Part shown: positions 4,811 through 57,449 of the stretch, one piece after another
Layout of the letters: each line of letters starts with the position of its first letter
Position numbering within the stretch: the first letter of the stretch is position 1
Assembly: GCA_963771175.1 (NCBI GenBank)
Contig: CAVYSY010000039.1
Coordinates: forward strand, 160,001 to 224,000
Direction: 5' to 3'
DNA length: 64,000 bases
Origin: an uncultured delta proteobacterium
Lineage (GTDB): Bacteria; Myxococcota; Myxococcia; Myxococcales; Myxococcaceae
Made by a program: the position numbers and the translations under genes
The notes under the pieces: generated by a model
Seen by the model: only the letters and a program-made list of their open reading frames with translations
The model's database searches: none
What the model was told of the DNA's origin: nothing

Positions 4811-5544
4811 ACGTGACGGGCACGCTGCGCTTCTCGGAGGTGTCCGTGACATTCGAGTCCGGCCGGCGGGTGCTGGCGGGGCTGAGCGCGGAGCTGTCCA
4901 CGCGCGAGCTGACCTTCGTGGCCGGAGCGAGCGGCGCGGGCAAGAGCGTGCTGTGCCGGCTGGCGGTGGGGCTGCTGCGGCCGGATGCGGGTCGGGTGGA
5001 GCTGCTCGGCGAACGGGTGGACACGCGGCCCGAGCGCGCCCTGCGAGCCCTGCGTCGGCGGGCACCGTACCTCGTGCAGGGCCCGGCGCTGCTGGACTGG
5101 CGAACGCTGCGGGAGAACGTGGCGATGGCGGCCCCCGGTGTGTCTCGGGCGGCGGTGGAAGATGCGCTGGGGCTGGTGGGGTTGGAGGCAGCGGGAGATC
5201 GACTGCCCACCGAGCTGGGGCCCGGGGCGAAGAAGCGGGCGGCGATCGCTCGGGCGCTGGTGCTGCAACCGGAGTACCTGCTGCTGGACGAGCCCACCAC
5301 GGGACTGGACCGGAGGGCGGCGGCGCAGGTGGAGGAGGTGCTGGCCTCGGTGAAGGCGCGAGGGCTGGGAGCGCTGGTGGTATCCCACGACTACCGGCTG
5401 CTGCGCACGCTGGCGGATCGGGTGCTGGTGGTGGGAGGGGGGCGATGCGCCTTCCTGGGCACGCCCGAGGAGTTCCTGGCATCTTCTGAACCGGAGTTGC
5501 GCGCCCTGACGGCGCCCTTCCTGGAGGCAGCATCGGATGGATGA
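4807..5544 (+). CDS. mlaF: MlaF-like ABC ATP-binding protein
   Basis: GTGA overlap with the mlaE stop; Walker A GASGAGKS; Walker B LLLDEPTTGLD; VVSHD; signature degenerate (LGPGAKK). Confidence 0.85.
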   Translation: MNVTGTLRFSEVSVTFESGRRVLAGLSAELSTRELTFVAGASGAGKSVLCRLAVGLLRPDAGRVELLGERVDTRPERALRALRRRAPYLVQGPALLDWRTLRENVAMAAPGVSRAAVEDALGLVGLEAAGDRLPTELGPGAKKRAAIARALVLQPEYLLLDEPTTGLDRRAAAQVEEVLASVKARGLGALVVSHDYRLLRTLADRVLVVGGGRCAFLGTPEEFLASSEPELRALTAPFLEAASDG

Positions 5545-20226: not shown

Positions 20227-20276
20227 CGACGGGTTTGGGCTTCCAGTTCGGGCGGTGCGCCCGGAGAGGTGCGGCA

Positions 20277-21710
20277 ATGTCTATCCATTCTGTCGATTCG
20301 CGCCCCGCTGACACACGGCGGCCCTTGCGTGCGGGGGCGCTGGCCCTGGCGGTGTTGATGCTGGTTACAGCGTGCGCCACGGGGGCCCCGATGGGCACGG
20401 CGGGGCACCGTTACCGTCCGTCCGCTCCTCACGACTCGCCCGAAGCGGGAGCGCTGGAGTCGGAAGCCGACGATGGGGGTCAGGGAGAAGCTATCTTCAC
20501 CAAGCTGCCCACGGACTTCGCGCCTGTGCAGGTGAGTGATTCCGAGCTTACGGCAGCCCTGACCACGCTTTGGCTCGACGTGCCGCTGCGAGTGGTCAGG
20601 TCCCGACCCACTCTGTATGTTGGCCGTAGGCTGGCGTTGGCTTCCGTGTCTTTGAGTGGGGAAGCCTGGAAATCAGACCTGGCGCAGTCCTATGGGCATT
20701 ATTGCGAGCGGTGCGGCACTCCGGGCGATTGTCTGACCCTGTTTGACGACGGGCCCCGCCTCCAAGATGACGACAAGCGCCGCCTTGCGCTTGCCCTGGC
20801 GGTGGGCCCTGCCCTGGAAGGCGTAAACGCGGAAGTGCGGGCGATGCTCAACCCTACACGGGCGCTGACGATGCTTAGCATCACCATAACGGTTTACATG
20901 GCGCTATTGTTGGCACCAATACCCGAGCCGGTGACAAAGGGCGCAGCCCTGGTGTTTAGCGCCGCCATGTGGGCTTATCTCGGGTGGGAATTCTTCAATC
21001 TACTGAAAGCCTATGCGGAGCTTCACGAAGACGCGCCCCGCGCCTCCACCTTTGCGGAACTGCGCGAAATAGGCGATCGGTTCGGCCGTGTCATCGGCCC
21101 CAACAGCGTGCGGATTCTCGTACTGGTGGGGACGGCGGCGATAGGAGAAACGGCGGCGCTCGCATCCAAGGCCCCGAAGCTACCAGGATTCGCACAAGCT
21201 TCGGAGAGGTTCGCGGCCAATGCCGGCTTGCACTTGCAGGATGCGGCAACCGGAGCCGAGCGCGTCATTATCTCGGTGCCCGAGGGCACGATCCGCCTTG
21301 TGTTGGCGCCTCACGTCGTGGCCATGGCGGCCCGGAGCGTTGCCGCTGGGAGTCCTGCACCGAGTCGGGGTAGGCTCCTGCCCAATGGGCATAGGGCGTG
21401 GGGATCGTATAGTGGCTTCAAGTCGGCCATGGGGTCAGCGGGCAAGGGCAAGGAATGGCATCACATCGTGGAGCAGACGCCGGGCAACGTGAAGCGGTTC
21501 GGGGGCGAGGCCCTTCACAATACCGAGAATGTCGCTGCGCTAGGAAAGCCCACCCACATGCGCATCAGTGCGTTTTACTCGTCGATTCAGCCGAAGATCA
21601 CGAACTCAAACACCCTGACAGTGCGGCAGTGGCTCAGCACTCAATCCTATGAAGCACAGCGCGAGTTCGGCTTGCTGACCATCAAGAACATTCTAGGAGG
21701 CATCTGGTGA
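20277..21710 (+). CDS. SitA5-like polymorphic lipoprotein toxin with C-terminal HNH/WHH-type nuclease
   Basis: RBS GAGAGG; lipobox LVTAC; YGHYCERCGTPGDCL; PEPVTKG; FGRVIGPNSVRIL; C-terminal WHHIVEQ...LHNTEN...H. Confidence 0.85.
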   Translation: MSIHSVDSRPADTRRPLRAGALALAVLMLVTACATGAPMGTAGHRYRPSAPHDSPEAGALESEADDGGQGEAIFTKLPTDFAPVQVSDSELTAALTTLWLDVPLRVVRSRPTLYVGRRLALASVSLSGEAWKSDLAQSYGHYCERCGTPGDCLTLFDDGPRLQDDDKRRLALALAVGPALEGVNAEVRAMLNPTRALTMLSITITVYMALLLAPIPEPVTKGAALVFSAAMWAYLGWEFFNLLKAYAELHEDAPRASTFAELREIGDRFGRVIGPNSVRILVLVGTAAIGETAALASKAPKLPGFAQASERFAANAGLHLQDAATGAERVIISVPEGTIRLVLAPHVVAMAARSVAAGSPAPSRGRLLPNGHRAWGSYSGFKSAMGSAGKGKEWHHIVEQTPGNVKRFGGEALHNTENVAALGKPTHMRISAFYSSIQPKITNSNTLTVRQWLSTQSYEAQREFGLLTIKNILGGIW

Positions 21711-52783: not shown

Positions 52784-53155
52784 TCAAAGGGGCTTGAACG
52801 TGCCCGCCTTCCACTGTTCTAGCGTCCACTCCGCTGAAAAGCCAATCAGACCGTTAGGGGCTTTAGCGAGTTCGGTAAGCACCCGTTCCCCCTCATCTGG
52901 TGCGAACTCCAAGACCGATGCAGCAACCCAGCAACGGGTGCCCAGGTCTGGATCATCGAGCAATCTCAACAACTGTCGCTGCGCATCTAGACCTCTTGCA
53001 CGCAACTCCCTGTCGATTGCGACGAGAAGATCGAACATGCGATTTCCGTCCTTTGGCTTGCCCGCATAAATGGCCCGCCACCTCTCAGCGGAAAGAATCC
53101 TGGTTTTTTCAATGAGCTGCTCCGTTGAGAGTTTCTTCACCTCTGCCTTTTTCAT
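52784..53155 (-). CDS. Cognate immunity protein (DUF2019-like) of the split toxin
   Basis: ATGA overlap with the toxin stop; ELRARG.DA...LL.LLD.PD...R..A...L...W..G. Confidence 0.8.
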   Translation of the reverse strand: MKKAEVKKLSTEQLIEKTRILSAERWRAIYAGKPKDGNRMFDLLVAIDRELRARGLDAQRQLLRLLDDPDLGTRCWVAASVLEFAPDEGERVLTELAKAPNGLIGFSAEWTLEQWKAGTFKPL

Positions 53156-53943
53156 GGAATGACCCCGAACTGCCTAAGAACCTTCAACCCGAAAGCGCGC
53201 TGTTCCTCATAGGACTTCGTGCGGAGCCATTCACGCACTACCAGACCACCCGTATCCCGGGATTTGGACGAGTAAAAGGCGCTTATTGCGTCATGCTTTG
53301 ACTTCTCGATCGCAATCACATTCTCGGTGTTGTGAATGGCTTCCGGACCGAAGCGCTCGATGTTCGCCTTGCGCTGTTCGACGATGTGGTGCCAGTGCTT
53401 GCCCTCACCTGCCGGCCCCATGAAGTCCTTGAAGTCATCAAAGGACTTGAACGCACGATAGCCGTTGGGAAGAAGCCTGCCCTCCTTGGGGATCCCACTC
53501 CCGCCTGCGGAGGACTTACCACCGCCGCTCCGGGCAGACATGGCAACGGCCGTGACCGGCAGGACAACTCGGATCGTCCCCTCGGGCACGGAGACGATGA
53601 CCCGCTCGGCCCCGGTTGCCGCATCCACCATGCGCAAGCCGGCGTTGACCTCTACTGCCCTCGAGGCTTGTCCAAAGCCCGGTAGCTTTGGTGCCTTGGA
53701 CACGAGTGCCGCGGTTTCGCCTACGGCCGCCGTCCCCACCATGACGAGAATGCGCACGCTGTTGGGGCCAATGACCCGCCCGAACCGCTCGCCCGCCTCG
53801 CGTAGTTCCGCGAAGGTGGAGGCTCGCGCCGCGTCCTCGGAGAGCTGCGCATACGCCCGGATCAGGTCGAAGAATTCCCATCCGAGGTAGCCCCACATGA
53901 GCACCGTAAACGCAGCGGCCACGCCCTTCGTGACCGGCTCGGG
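53152..53943 (-). pseudogene. 3' half of a SitA5-like toxin (nuclease tip), interrupted by the element
   Basis: PEPVTKG...GYLGWEFF...FGRVIGPNSVRIL...WHHIVEQ...IHNTEN; colinear with 20277-21710. Confidence 0.9.
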
Positions 53944-54419
53944 AAAGCCCCCAACGACGCACCCCCTTAAAGACGCAGCCGTCGAGAGATTTGGTGGTCA
54001 TCACCCACCCGCTCCATCCGTTCGTGGGTCGCGCATTCCCCGTGCAGCAGCGCCTGCGCTACCTCGGCCGCCCCAGCGTCGTGCTGCTGTTTCCCGACGG
54101 CCGTCTCGCGAGGGTTCCGGAGGATTGGACGGACCTGCGGCCCAGGCCCCCACCGCTCGAGCTCCGAGGGAAATGTCCGAAGCTGCACCCTGAATCGCTC
54201 CGCGAGCTGAGTGCCCTTCTCGATGACTTGAGGCATAGGTCTCAGCTCCATGACCAGGAAGGTAGTGCGTCGGACGAGAAGCGCCAAGGGCCGGTCATCG
54301 CCGGGCGCGCTCTACGCCGCACTCCCCGCGGCGGCCCGGCACGAGCTGCTGGGCGTACTGGCCGACGTGCTGCTCAAGGCCGTCACCAAGGCTCCCGCCG
54401 GAAGCGAGGCAAGCGATGA
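53943..54419 (+). CDS. DUF5372 (Y4bD/Y4pK)-like protein; frame open back to the left junction
   Basis: VITHPLHPFVGRAF...DGRLARVPEDWTDL; no ATG in the integrated state (TTG at 53991, GTG at 53994). Confidence 0.7.
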   Translation, partial: ESPQRRTPLKTQPSRDLVVITHPLHPFVGRAFPVQQRLRYLGRPSVVLLFPDGRLARVPEDWTDLRPRPPPLELRGKCPKLHPESLRELSALLDDLRHRSQLHDQEGSASDEKRQGPVIAGRALRRTPRGGPARAAGRTGRRAAQGRHQGSRRKRGKR

Positions 54420-54588
54420 CCACCAAGATTCGGCCAGAGCACCTGGCCAGACCCGCGCTGGTGTACATCCGCCAGTCCACCCTGTTGCAGGTCCACGAGC
54501 ACCGGGAGTCGACCGAGCGCCAGTACGCCCTGGTGGAGCTGGCCAAGAAACTCGGCTGGGACGCCACCCAGGTCGAGGTCATCGATGA
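54250..54588 (+). CDS. Small accessory ORF of the recombinase element
   Basis: ATG 54250; helical LYAALPAAARHELLGVLADVLLKAV; overlaps the LSR start. Confidence 0.45.
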   Translation: MTRKVVRRTRSAKGRSSPGALYAALPAAARHELLGVLADVLLKAVTKAPAGSEASDDHQDSARAPGQTRAGVHPPVHPVAGPRAPGVDRAPVRPGGAGQETRLGRHPGRGHR

Positions 54589-56784
54589 GGACCTGGGTCA
54601 GAGCGGTGCCAGTGCCGCCCGGCGCAAGGGCTTCCAGCGGCTGACGGCCGAGGTCAGCCTCGGCAAGGTGGGCGCCGTCTTGTCGCTGGAGGTGTCACGA
54701 CTGGCGCGCTCCTCGTCCGATTGGCACCGGCTGCTGGATTTGTGCGCGCTCTCCGACACGCTCATCATCGACGACGATGGCGTCTACGACGCCAACGACT
54801 TCAACGACCGGCTGGTGCTGGGCATGAAGGGCACCATGAGTGACGCCGAGCGCCACTCCATGCGCCTGCGCCTGCAAGGCGGCATCCTGCACAAGGCGAA
54901 GAAGGGCGAGCTCGTCTATCCCCCGCCCACTGGCTACGTCTTCGAGGACGGTGCGCTCGTCTTCGACCCCGACGAGCAGGTGCAGAAAGCCATCCGTCTC
55001 CTCTTCGAGCGCTTCCGCCTGGAAGGCAGTGTCAGCGGCGCCGTGCGCTACTTCACCCGCAACAAACTGCTCTTCCCCTCACGCCATGCTCACCGGGGCG
55101 CTCCGGCGGAAATTCGCTGGCACGCGCTGGACGTCCCGCGTGCCGTGTCCATCCTGCGCAATCCGGTGTACGCCGGAGCCTACGCCTGGGGCCGCAATCG
55201 CGACCGGCGCGTCCTCGTCGAAGGAGAGGTGCGACGCAAGCACGAGACGCTCCAGGAGCCGGAGCAGTGGCATGCGTTCCTGCGCGATGCGCACCCCGCG
55301 TACATCTCCTGGGAGCAGTACCTGGAGAACTTGAAGCGCCTCGAAGACAACGCCGTCAGAGGGGCGCATGTGCGTGGCCGAGGTGCGCCACGCGGAGGTC
55401 CGGCGCTGCTCCAGGGGCTGGTGCTGTGCGGCAAGTGTGGCCGGCGGATGCACCCGGTCTACTCCGTCGCCGACGACCCCAGCTACCAGTGCAGCCGGCG
55501 CCTGTACGGCGAGGGCAACTGCTGGTCCACGGTCGCGCGCCGCATTGACGACAAGATAGTCGAGACCCTGCTGACGGCTTTCGCCCCGCCCGAATTGGAC
55601 CTGTCGCTGGCGGTCCTCAAGGAGGTGGAGCGGCAGGCCGAGGAGGTCAACCGCCAGTGGAAGCTGCGCCTGGAGCGGGTGCGCTACGAGGCCCAGCGCG
55701 CCGAGCGCCAGTACAACGCCGTGGAGCCGGAGAATCGCGTGGTGGCCCGCACGCTGGAGTCGCGCTGGAACCAGAAGCTCGAGGAGCTCGCGCGGGTCGA
55801 GCATGAGTACGAGCAGGCCAGGAGCACGAGTCCGCTGGAACTCTCGGACAAGGACAAGAAGAAGATACTGGCGCTGGCGGGCGACCTGCCCGGGCTGTGG
55901 AACGCGCCGACCACGACCAACTCGGACAAGAAGCGGATACTGCGGCTGCTCATCCAGGAGGTGGTGCTCTCGCCGGTGGACGTGCCAAAGCGGGCCACTC
56001 GCATCCGCATCCTCTGGAAGACGGGAGCCATCACCGAGTTGCAAACGCCTCGGCCCACGTTTTCTGAATCCAGAAGGACGCCACCCCAGGTCATCGCCGA
56101 GATTCGCAAGCTCGCCAGGAAGCATTACAGCGATCCGCAGATAGCAGAGGAGCTCAACCGGGGTGGCTTGAAGAGCGGCCTGCGTCACGCCTTCACCCGC
56201 CGCCTGGTGGCGGGCATTCGCAAGCGACAGGGCATTCGTGCTGGACGAACTGCTGGAGGATTCAGCATCCGGGCGCCCGAGCGCGACGAGCAGGGGCTTT
56301 ATTCCATCCGCGGTCTGATCGCGCATTTCGGAGTGACGGCCCCCATGGTCCACTACTGGGTCAACCGCGGCCTGATCACCCCCGTGCACAGCCGCACGCC
56401 CATACACAAATGGAACAAGGAGCCCTTCTGGTTCGAGATGACGCCCGAATTGGAGGCGCTCCTGGCCAAGGCGCGCGACCAGGGCTACGCAGCCGGGCAA
56501 GCCGCCGCATCCGCGGTCACAGTGGCCATCCGCGCCCGCCGGCTCGTCTGCCGGACGGCCGCTACTCCACGCGCGGTCTCGTCGAGAAGTACGGAGTAAC
56601 CTGGGACACCGTGCGGTACTGGATAAAGAAGGGCATCCTCACGCCCGAGCGCGCTCTACCGAAGGGCAATTTCTGCTTCCGGCTGACCCACGAGGTGGAG
56701 CGGCACATCCAGGCCGCCCTTGCTCGAAAACGGACGCCACGCGGTCCCACGCAGCACCACCATCATCACCTCCATTCCCGCTAA
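54416..56784 (+). CDS. Large serine recombinase (resolvase + recombinase + zinc ribbon + coiled coil + tandem C-terminal HTHs; frameshift near 56490)
   Basis: ALVYIRQST (catalytic Ser), DEDLGQSG, EVSRLARS, LRNPVYAGAY, LLQGLVLCGKCG; two MerR-like HTH repeats, the second in frame 56410-56784. Confidence 0.93.
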
Positions 56785-56810
56785 CACAGGTGTCCTGATG
56801 CAGGTTCCGG

Positions 56811-57449
56811 GGCCAGCAAGAGCGCCATGTACGTCGCGATCGCGAGGCTGACGGTCGCCAGCACCCGCGTGGGGTCGAGCATGGCCCGCACTTCCGCGCC
56901 CACTCCTTCCAGTGCCGGTCCCACCGCCAGGGCCAGGGCAATGCTGCGCTTGTCGTCGGCTTGCAGAAAGGGACCGTCTTCCAACAGCGTCAGACAATCA
57001 CTGGGAGTGCCGCGCCGCTCGCAATAACCCCCATACGACGTCAACAGCTCCGATTGCCCTGCATCTCCACCCGAGCCGCCGGTGCCCGGCGCCAGCCTGC
57101 CGCCATGTTGCACGGGGGCGGAGGAGGCCACCCGCAGCGGAATGTTGAGCACCAGCGTCGCCAGGGCGGCATGGAACTCCGCGTCCCCAATCCGCACCGG
57201 TTCGAAGTCCGTGGGCAACCTGGCGAAGACGAGCACGCCGTTGTCCACCTCATCGCTCCGTGCCGCCGTTCGCTCCTTCGTCTCCAGGGACTCCCGAGGT
57301 GTTGGCCACTGGTCGCGATACGTCGTCAGCCGTCCACCCGGGTGCGCCCCCGTGGAACACGCCCCCAGGAGCACCAGCCCAACTAGAGCCAGCGCGCCCA
57401 CGCGAGAGCACGGTCGCTCACCAAAGGGGGGCAGATGATGAGTAGACAT
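56811..57449 (-). pseudogene. 5' half of the SitA5-like lipoprotein toxin
   Basis: RBS GAGAGG; lipobox LLGAC; RLPTDFEPV; YGGYCERRGTPSDCL; ALALAVGPALEGV; ends MALLLA at the junction. Confidence 0.9.

Follow-up and report, generated by a model that had tools for sequence, protein, structure and literature searches.

A start codon and a DUF5372 reading frame at opposite ends of a myxobacterial serine recombinase element, and their in-frame union in circles reconstructed in silico

The inserted element and its genes

The window analyzed here is a stretch of 64,000 nucleotides (nt), with 69% G+C, from an uncultured member of the Myxococcaceae (GenBank assembly GCA_963771175.1, contig CAVYSY010000039.1, positions 160,001 to 224,000 of the forward strand); all positions given for it are in window numbering. 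A gene on its minus strand is interrupted, between 53941 and 56812, by an insertion of 2.87 kb that resembles an insertion sequence (IS). The plus strand of the insertion holds three frames, namely a start-less open reading frame (ORF) for a DUF5372 protein, a small gene nested in it (ORF2) and the gene of a large serine recombinase (LSR). The subject of this report is the relation between the two ends of this element: joined as they would be in an excised circle, they place a start codon from the right end in frame with the DUF5372 ORF at the left end, and the same arrangement is found in related elements from myxobacteria to proteobacteria.

The element runs from 53944 to 56808 and, together with one copy of a 2-bp GG core, occupies 53942-56810. 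At the left junction (attL) there is a run of G at 53941-53943, in which 53942-53943 form the crossover dinucleotide; GG precedes the first element base in all copies of the sitA5 type, and similarity between copies starts at 53944. At the right junction (attR) the crossover GG is 56809-56810, and the flank diverges directly after it in L002-L004 and L010 of the related loci described below. Similarity of independent copies to the window starts and ends at the predicted bases and, with GG at both junctions, the insertion is conservative, at a short shared core and without target duplication. The right end reads, in order, TAA (56782-56784), AGGTG (56788-56792), ATG (56798-56800), eight bases and a run of four G (56809-56812), with 5 nt between the AGGTG and the ATG. 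The right arm (P arm) of attP, the attachment site of the circle, is 56785-56808 (plus strand) and contains both the ATG and the AGGTG, which resembles a Shine-Dalgarno (SD) motif. The left arm (P' arm, 53944-53993, plus strand), with GCACC at 53959-53963, doubles as the leader of the DUF5372 ORF and is untranslatable as such in the integrated state.

The interrupted gene encodes a 'SitA5 family polymorphic toxin', a name taken from the sources of several to many BLASTP matches. Its C-terminal half (53152-53940, minus strand) is 90% identical to residues 216-478 of an intact homolog (P0009), and its N-terminal half (56811-57449, minus strand) is 85% identical to residues 1-216 of the same protein, counted from residue 31 of the listed ORF; intact homologs of 450-490 aa come from Archangium and Cystobacter. 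Seven G have to be divided between attP and the restored target site, attB. Six of the eight possible partitions break the host frame and were discarded, and the two that hold it both also set ATG 56798 in frame with DUF5372. With five G in attB and two in attP, the restored toxin has exactly the residues of intact SitA5 homologs (P0011, P0015); the other in-frame partition, with five G in attP, needs five G at the right junction, which has four. The former join also gives a symmetric attP, with GGTGT and GCACC each 15 nt from the GG core, on its left and right respectively. It is taken to be the right one because of the host frame, the residues of the homologs, the exclusion of its alternative and the symmetry of attP. 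The attachment site thus formed lies within coding sequence of the element, the core falling after the fourth codon of the junction ORF. An in-frame fusion of ATG 56798 to the left-end ORF had been claimed in the original prediction, and it is borne out both by the sequence and by the fact that this is the only join compatible with the other copies.

The DUF5372 protein matches its Pfam family (PF17342) with 35.9 bits against a cut-off of 25 (E = 7.5e-9), over profile positions 1-77 of 78. The domain (53994-54239, plus strand) is a small beta-barrel followed by a C-terminal helix, modeled by AlphaFold2 with a mean predicted local distance difference test score (pLDDT) of 83.7 and a predicted template modeling score (pTM) of 0.61; the leader is modeled as disordered, with low pLDDT for residues 1-16. 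The domain sets in at about 54000, and the frame is open upstream of it as far as a TGA at 53931-53933. As the prediction had it, this part of the integrated ORF contains no ATG, and only TTG 53991 and GTG 53994 are in frame. The whole start-less frame spans 53943-54419 (plus strand), and its TGA (54417-54419) overlaps the ATG of the LSR gene at 54416 (ATGA). A third-position substitution bias (5/26/13 and 6/19/11) points to clear purifying selection on the domain. When DUF5372 was searched for folds in the PDB, nothing was found at E ≤ 0.001, the weak best matches being the SH3/KOW-like barrels of ribosomal protein eS4 and NdhS; the accessory proteins match no PHROGs or NCBIfam family, DUF5372 has no match in 50,697 phage records, and a protein atlas search gave no usable match.

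ORF2 (54250-54588, plus strand) starts at ATG 54250 and, lying within the tail of the DUF5372 ORF but in a different frame, encodes a small helical protein; it overlaps the start of the LSR gene. Its conserved part covers about 54250-54420, and G+C content at third codon positions (GC3) is high in the ORF2 frame over 54240-54400. The protein, of 52-57 residues, is conserved in both myxobacteria and proteobacteria, and its frame reaches the LSR start or passes it; the myxobacterial versions have lost the stop and run on for 80-170 nt within the LSR gene. Homologs of 52-55 aa with their own SD motif and ATG are found at 7308-7472 of L027, 7302-7469 of L030 and 5344-5502 of L031. No Pfam, NCBIfam or PHROGs match was obtained for ORF2; its helix motif also ends the helix-turn-helix (HTH) protein of the Sinorhizobium elements.

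The open frame of the LSR in the window copy (54416-56599, plus strand) matches Pfam Resolvase, Recombinase and Zn_ribbon_recom. It comprises a resolvase-type catalytic domain with a serine nucleophile (PF00239, E = 1.2e-20), in which R19-Q20-S21, invariant in 58 aligned homologs, is present; a Recombinase domain (PF07508) and a zinc ribbon (PF13408) with an inserted coiled coil and four invariant Cys; and MerR-like repeats at the C-terminus. Relative to L001, the window gene is shifted by +1 at about 56492 and by -2 at about 56511, with a GC3 frame switch at about 56535, so that the last ~36 residues are out of frame and the last MerR-like HTH repeat is lost. The displaced C-terminal part, with this second repeat (MerR_1, E = 6.9e-5), lies at 56512-56784 (plus strand) in the +1 frame and ends at TAA 56782-56784. 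An LSR stop at 56784 had been assumed; the TAA is present, but it is the stop of the ancestral frame, and the window ORF from 54416 ends at 56599. The frameshift had been missed in the earlier reading, as had the nested small gene and the ending of the DUF5372 ORF on the LSR start codon. An intact LSR of 789 aa is encoded in L001, L002, L005-L008 and L010, and in the Archangium gephyra loci L003 and L004 the gene is broken by a common, different +1 shift at the equivalent of window position 55839. Several copies (those of the window, L003 and L004), with their frameshifted LSRs, are thus decaying. Many close homologs of the LSR (clusters P0284, P0289-P0293, P0300, P0310 and others) come from contigs of 2.6-2.9 kb, which match the element in size and would fit collapsed repeats or assembled circles.

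In-frame starts in related elements

Myxobacterial relatives were collected in a genome scan with an alignment of 13 sequences, in which 52 stretches matched and 18 loci were confirmed. Nine of these loci hold whole or nearly whole elements with 78-97% nucleotide identity to that of the window. Three identical copies occur in the genome of Cystobacter fuscus, Archangium gephyra has two, and Corallococcus aberystwythensis has a collapsed contig of high coverage; the element is therefore a multi-copy, IS-like unit. Some myxobacterial copies lie in other SitA5 paralogs, and the C. fuscus type has a different core and a different target, a toxin-like lipoprotein gene. The block of stop, AGGTG and ATG is present in 10/10 myxobacterial right ends.

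Searches of plasmids by tblastn gave 53 records with the DUF5372 protein and 28 with a second family member (a protein of a third DUF5372 subgroup, P0176, had no match among the plasmids), and yielded four further architectures, making five with that of the myxobacteria. The elements of Sinorhizobium and of Burkholderia RPE67, which lie antisense in istA of IS21, carry genes for DUF5372, an HTH protein and the LSR in that order. The ends of the Sinorhizobium type are fixed by a real uninterrupted istA copy, and the TGA of the LSR overlaps a GTG-ATG pair (Sinorhizobium) or a GTG (RPE67) in frame with DUF5372 across the join. An element end directly after the ATG was rejected for Sinorhizobium, as the uninterrupted istA copy puts the right end 9 nt outward, with the frame unchanged; the IS21 copy of L020 was rejected as an empty site, and so not used as attB, on account of a 22-nt target deletion. 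In pWW53 and Mycetohabitans the element is antisense in group II intron reverse-transcriptase genes, the right end is clearly homologous to that of the window, and the ATG is in frame. The Mesorhizobium loti element resembles that of pWW53 and has a 3-nt insertion giving two in-frame ATGs. Paraburkholderia and Caballeronia have the order DUF5372 (annotated as 'Y4bD/Y4pK family'), DUF6788, LSR, with GAGGTG and, 10 nt after the stop, an in-frame ATG; the target is a reverse-transcriptase motif, which is restored.

Sinorhizobium plasmids carry the element in up to four places each, and precise multi-copy insertions such as these show that the family is or has been mobile. Taking the element out at the reconstructed attB recovers the host protein in four independent cases, those of SitA5, of IS21 istA (compared with the real uninterrupted copy L025), of a reverse-transcriptase motif of group II introns and of a transposase motif of the rve type. 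The element of the window is probably one copy of an IS-like family of 2.7-3.3 kb that consists of an LSR gene and two small accessory genes and moves conservatively at a 2-bp core.

An in-frame right-end start that reads into the DUF5372 motif without a stop was found in 20/20 in silico circles (17/17 plus 3/3). The start codon is ATG in 19/20 and, in L029, a GTG that overlaps the TGA of the LSR. Among the circularized elements the DUF5372 proteins range down to 28% identity to that of the window, and other candidate starts near the ends open ORFs of 1-51 aa. The original prediction had proposed that elements with an LSR and DUF5372 be circularized in search of such a start, and its expectation of a consistent frame is upheld in five end architectures, at 20/20 rather than about one third: the signal for expression has its parts at opposite ends of the element and becomes whole in the circle. 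Not counted among the 20 were L001, whose contig ends at the core and whose right end matches that of the window; L009, L011, L012, L014-L016 and L018, with one end only; L013, at a contig edge; L017, with no LSR; L020, with flanks that share no common core; L023, L028 and L032, in which the LSR is missing or truncated; and L035, with an IS3 inside its LSR gene and no right end located.

The frame is also kept through changes of length. The distance from the start to the left arm is 13, 16 or 10 nt, and in Mesorhizobium (L031) the 3-nt insertion falls between the ATG and the core. The leader has 17 codons in the window versus 15 in pWW53, and 20 in Sinorhizobium versus 22 in Burkholderia/Paraburkholderia, all differences being multiples of three; in the 10/10 myxobacterial elements its frame is open and free of indels. 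In L029 the usual ATG position is lost, and the in-frame GTG on the stop codon stands in its place.

SD-like complementarity 5' of the junction start amounts to -6.2 to -10.5 kcal/mol in 8/10 representatives and to -3.1 kcal/mol in the other two, the duplex of the window AGGTG region with an anti-SD motif being -6.3 kcal/mol. The region 5' of the domain in integrated copies reaches -3.8 kcal/mol at best (eight measured). The integrated copies of pWW53 and Mycetohabitans have no in-frame ATG, GTG or TTG between the upstream stop and the domain, and that of Mesorhizobium has no canonical start before an ATG inside the first strand of the domain; these statements come from reading individual proteobacterial copies, at least three in number. 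PLSDB lists no coding sequence under these plasmid matches. The position of the annotated N-terminus varies across 140 representatives of the family, from 0 to 160 residues ahead of the conserved HP motif; for P0001 (Cystobacter) the annotated start is in the host flank, and in the Sinorhizobium locus L020 the first canonical in-element start, which annotators use (6097), cuts off the conserved N-terminal motif.

DUF5372 and the direction of recombination

A model of the complex between DUF5372 and the intact LSR of L001 reached interface scores (ipSAE) of 0.68, 0.65 and 0.65, against 0.00 for the best of three controls, with at least 83% of contacts common to the runs and a partner pLDDT of at least 77. 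The model thereby passes the mark applied, which is reached by 116/157 solved complexes and 2/215 mismatched pairs, counts that are rough for the present case as it used alignments of its own. The modeled interface involves residues 337-343, 388-404, 474-519 and 531-540 of the LSR, that is, the zinc-ribbon domain and the proximal ends of the coiled coil, and residues 22-27 and 71-99 of DUF5372, which include the most conserved residues of the family (H25, P26 and L86). The model supports binding of DUF5372 to the LSR at the zinc ribbon (the second DNA-binding domain, DBD2) and the base of the coiled coil. All verified recombination directionality factors (RDFs) examined in one study are predicted to bind the DBD2/coiled-coil junction (PMC12286644). 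Because DUF5372 is docked (ipSAE 0.65) where verified RDFs are predicted or seen to bind, its candidacy as a directionality factor or integration cofactor, first raised from the window alone, gains support from the modeling.

We propose, with a probability of roughly 0.6, that a circular or tandem form of the element, through its attP junction, is the only source of full-length DUF5372, which then acts on the direction-setting site of the LSR. While the element is integrated, the coding body of DUF5372 at the left end lies 2.9 kb away from the ribosome-binding site and start codon at the right end, leaving an ORF with no proper start or only a poor one. Excision of a circle by the LSR would join these start signals to the DUF5372 body at attP, and ribosomes that end the LSR, or load at the AGGTG, could then start at the junction codon and produce the full-length protein. 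This would dock on the zinc ribbon at the base of the coiled coil, tying the behavior of the enzyme to the inserted or free state of the element. Several identical copies at different sites in one genome are consistent with excision and re-integration. In the short lineages, translation started at the junction should also raise LSR synthesis in the circle, because the DUF5372 frame stays open over ORF2 and stops on the LSR ATG. As to the sign of the effect, we favor a DUF5372 that helps integration or neutralizes a factor of the ORF2 type, since it would make little sense for a classical excision factor to be unavailable in the integrated state.

Several points weigh against this proposal. All results were obtained in silico; the window copy itself may be dead, given its frameshifted LSR; and a consensus scan of the integrated sequence from 53700 to 57000 found no sigma-70-like promoter from which a junction-spanning mRNA could start. 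A DUF5372 that acted like a classical RDF and was made only in the circle would block re-integration, and coupling to the LSR is not general, as 130-180 nt separate the end of DUF5372 from the gene that follows it in the Sinorhizobium and Paraburkholderia lineages. The GTG directly before the domain is kept in all myxobacterial copies seen and is the start used in NCBI annotation of P0002, P0005, P0007 and P0008, and some translation from it while the element is integrated is possible. The ATG and AGGTG lie inside a recombinase-binding arm of attP and may be conserved for DNA binding, as the opposite arm mirrors the GGTG and, in elements of the C. fuscus type, the ATG as well (by CAT). The first 60 nt of the ORF, its leader, show no codon periodicity (variable sites 12/9/11 by position), and an open stretch of 20 codons is the chance expectation at 69% G+C. 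Moreover, the 20 elements are not independent, as they fall into about five architectures, two of which, the myxobacterial and the pWW53 type, have homologous right ends. When the last 30 nt of six representative right ends were shuffled, an in-frame canonical start with an open frame arose at a frequency of 0.22-0.38 and an in-frame ATG at 0.10-0.15. Because of the former frequency one element alone is not significant, but the recurrence across lineages is.

The same points can be assembled into a different explanation, in which the ATG and AGGTG are kept as a recombinase-binding arm, the match of frame is inherited chance, and DUF5372 is translated from integrated copies, starting at GTG or TTG in myxobacteria and at non-canonical or flank-borne starts elsewhere. 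Such an account would draw on the position of the start and SD-like motif within ~25 nt of the core, with the mirrored GGTG, as well as on the aperiodic leader, the conserved myxobacterial GTG and a per-lineage chance that is not small. We consider it quite unlikely in view of the 20/20 in-frame starts in five architectures, the in-frame replacement of the lost ATG in L029, the frame-preserving insertion in L031 and leader lengths that vary only in multiples of three. It also has to contend with pWW53 and Mycetohabitans, which lack any canonical start when integrated, and with the loss of the conserved N-terminal motif from the Sinorhizobium protein if the annotated start at 6097 of L020 is used.

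The tail of DUF5372 bears on a second alternative, that of a translational switch for the LSR only: ribosomes from the junction would reach the LSR ATG and re-initiate there, giving a burst of LSR for re-integration, while the activity of DUF5372 itself would be unrelated to directionality. In the lineages of 2.7-2.9 kb the frame is open for 55-70 codons past the domain and then stops on the LSR ATG, an overlap seen in 6/6 short-lineage elements checked (the window, L005, L010, L027, L030 and L031), and the tail, rich in Arg and Gly, shows poor conservation. However, the junction start is still kept in Sinorhizobium and Paraburkholderia, where DUF5372 ends early, the domain is under clear purifying selection, and the complex model places its best-conserved residues in contact with the LSR. 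These features make the LSR-only switch unlikely.

A more conventional role would have DUF5372 trigger attL x attR excision as a classical RDF, supplied in the integrated state by rare initiation or by read-in from the host, with the junction start of secondary importance. The modeled docking site is that of verified RDFs (PMC12286644), and small proteins encoded beside LSRs are often RDFs, an example being GirX (PMC5595907). Production from the integrated element, however, is where this account falters, as the window has no ATG there and at least three proteobacterial copies have neither a canonical start nor an annotated gene. Read-in from the host is unlikely, as the copies in SitA5, istA and reverse-transcriptase genes lie antisense to their targets and have an in-frame stop 2-29 codons upstream. 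An RDF made strongly in the circle, in 1:1 coupling with the LSR, would inhibit re-integration, and ORF2, conserved and with its own start, is available for the RDF role. A classical RDF therefore seems to us very unlikely.

The reverse arrangement is a tentative but possible variant. Here the LSR alone, perhaps with ORF2, would excise rarely, fed by low-level LSR from the integrated copy, and DUF5372, translated from the attP junction only and seated on the RDF site of the enzyme, would be an integration factor that flips or locks the LSR into the attP x attB mode or displaces an RDF of the ORF2 type. Insertion would then split the gene and reset the system, which would be a self-contained two-state switch with no host regulator.

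The element invites comparison with known pairs of LSR and RDF (phiC31 Int-gp3, SPbeta SprA-SprB, gin GirC-GirX), with which it shares an LSR that would convert attP/attB to attL/attR and back at a 2-bp core and a small, family-specific accessory protein encoded beside the LSR. It also shares the modeled contact at the zinc-ribbon (DBD2)/coiled-coil junction (PMC12286644 and PMC5814800), and the gin element is a non-phage LSR element with an RDF of 6.5 kDa (PMC5595907). It differs from these pairs in that known RDFs have their own start codon and are expressed in the integrated state, whereas the DUF5372 gene becomes whole only across attP. The fold, PHROGs and phage-record searches detected no similarity between DUF5372 and described RDFs, and here there are two accessory proteins, one nested in the frame of the other, in a multi-copy IS-like element of 2.9 kb.

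Circular intermediates are known to form promoters at their junctions in IS911, IS30, IS21, IS492 and the IS110 family, in Tn4451, whose TnpX is an LSR, and at Pcirc of ICEclc. There, as here, a signal split between the ends is assembled in the circle or tandem form, with expression high when free and off on insertion; the split signal in those cases, however, is a promoter (-35/-10) and the product a transposase, whereas here a start codon and SD motif are parted from the coding body of an accessory protein, a split that would operate at the level of translation. An attP inside a gene of the element is also familiar from the integration of SSV1-type archaeal viruses and from intP of Mx8 in Myxococcus. 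The crossover likewise lies inside coding sequence, so that integration splits the gene and circularization restores it, but the gene split in those systems is a tyrosine integrase; in the present element the serine recombinase is whole, DUF5372 is split, and only its first four codons and the translation signals are separated. We know of no system of either kind that splits the start codon from the accessory gene of a serine recombinase. XisF, the LSR of the fdxN element of Anabaena, needs two small accessory proteins, XisH and XisI. It is the best NCBIfam match of the window LSR, but with 85.5 bits against a cut-off of 375 the latter is not a member, and XisH and XisI are unrelated to DUF5372 and ORF2 by the searches run.

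The name DUF5372 is absent from the open full-text literature, subscription-only literature and ISfinder lying outside the search, and titles and opening lines of abstracts retrieved from the full-text literature for y4bD, y4pK, y4bA and y4pH held nothing relevant. The proposal thus offers a first testable role for DUF5372, with a similar lead for ORF2. In the literature searched by topic there was no description of compact multi-copy serine-recombinase elements such as these. If the proposal is true, circle-activated genes would extend from transcription to translation and from transposases to a possible direction-setting factor. LSRs are tools of genome engineering whose reversibility depends on partner proteins, and a family whose architecture marks such a partner, possibly with reversed logic, would be of use there. 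Should DUF5372 prove to be an integration factor reset by insertion, the elements would represent a widespread, undescribed class of serine-recombinase IS that home to conserved motifs in multi-copy genes, namely other transposases, group II intron reverse transcriptases and polymorphic toxins.

Target genes and neighboring features

In each lineage the target is a conserved motif of a multi-copy gene, entered mostly in antisense orientation (L019-L036 on plasmids; L005-L008). The targets are IS21 istA, an rve-type transposase motif, the IPT..DR motif of group II intron reverse transcriptases and two polymorphic toxin gene families, and repeated genes of other mobile elements seem to be the habitat of the family. 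The SitA5 family comprises kin-discrimination toxins of myxobacteria, and homing to mobile-element motifs and to such toxins is relevant to conflict among mobile elements and to toxin gene decay. An uninterrupted SitA5-family paralog is present in the window at 20241-21692; it has two extra codons at the equivalent site and so is not an exact target. Just downstream of the broken toxin gene, the ORF at 52784-53155 (minus strand) may be an immunity gene.

Some IS21 copies of Sinorhizobium have deletions at the istA target site, of 22 nt in the L020 type and 15 nt in the L026 type, relative to L025; that of L020 is at 4880-4895, and 38/133 matching records have at least 95% identity to the deleted version. 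These deletions could be scars of imprecise excision or of target loss. The right flank of one Sinorhizobium medicae copy (L020, 9300-9330) shares no core with the left and is part of a larger repeated unit, and the second copy in L022 (1027-4350 and 10258-11417) is split by other insertions, which suggests rearrangements between copies. A DUF5372 frame with no LSR, on an uncultured deltaproteobacterial contig (L017, 9638-10345), looks like a remnant of such an element.

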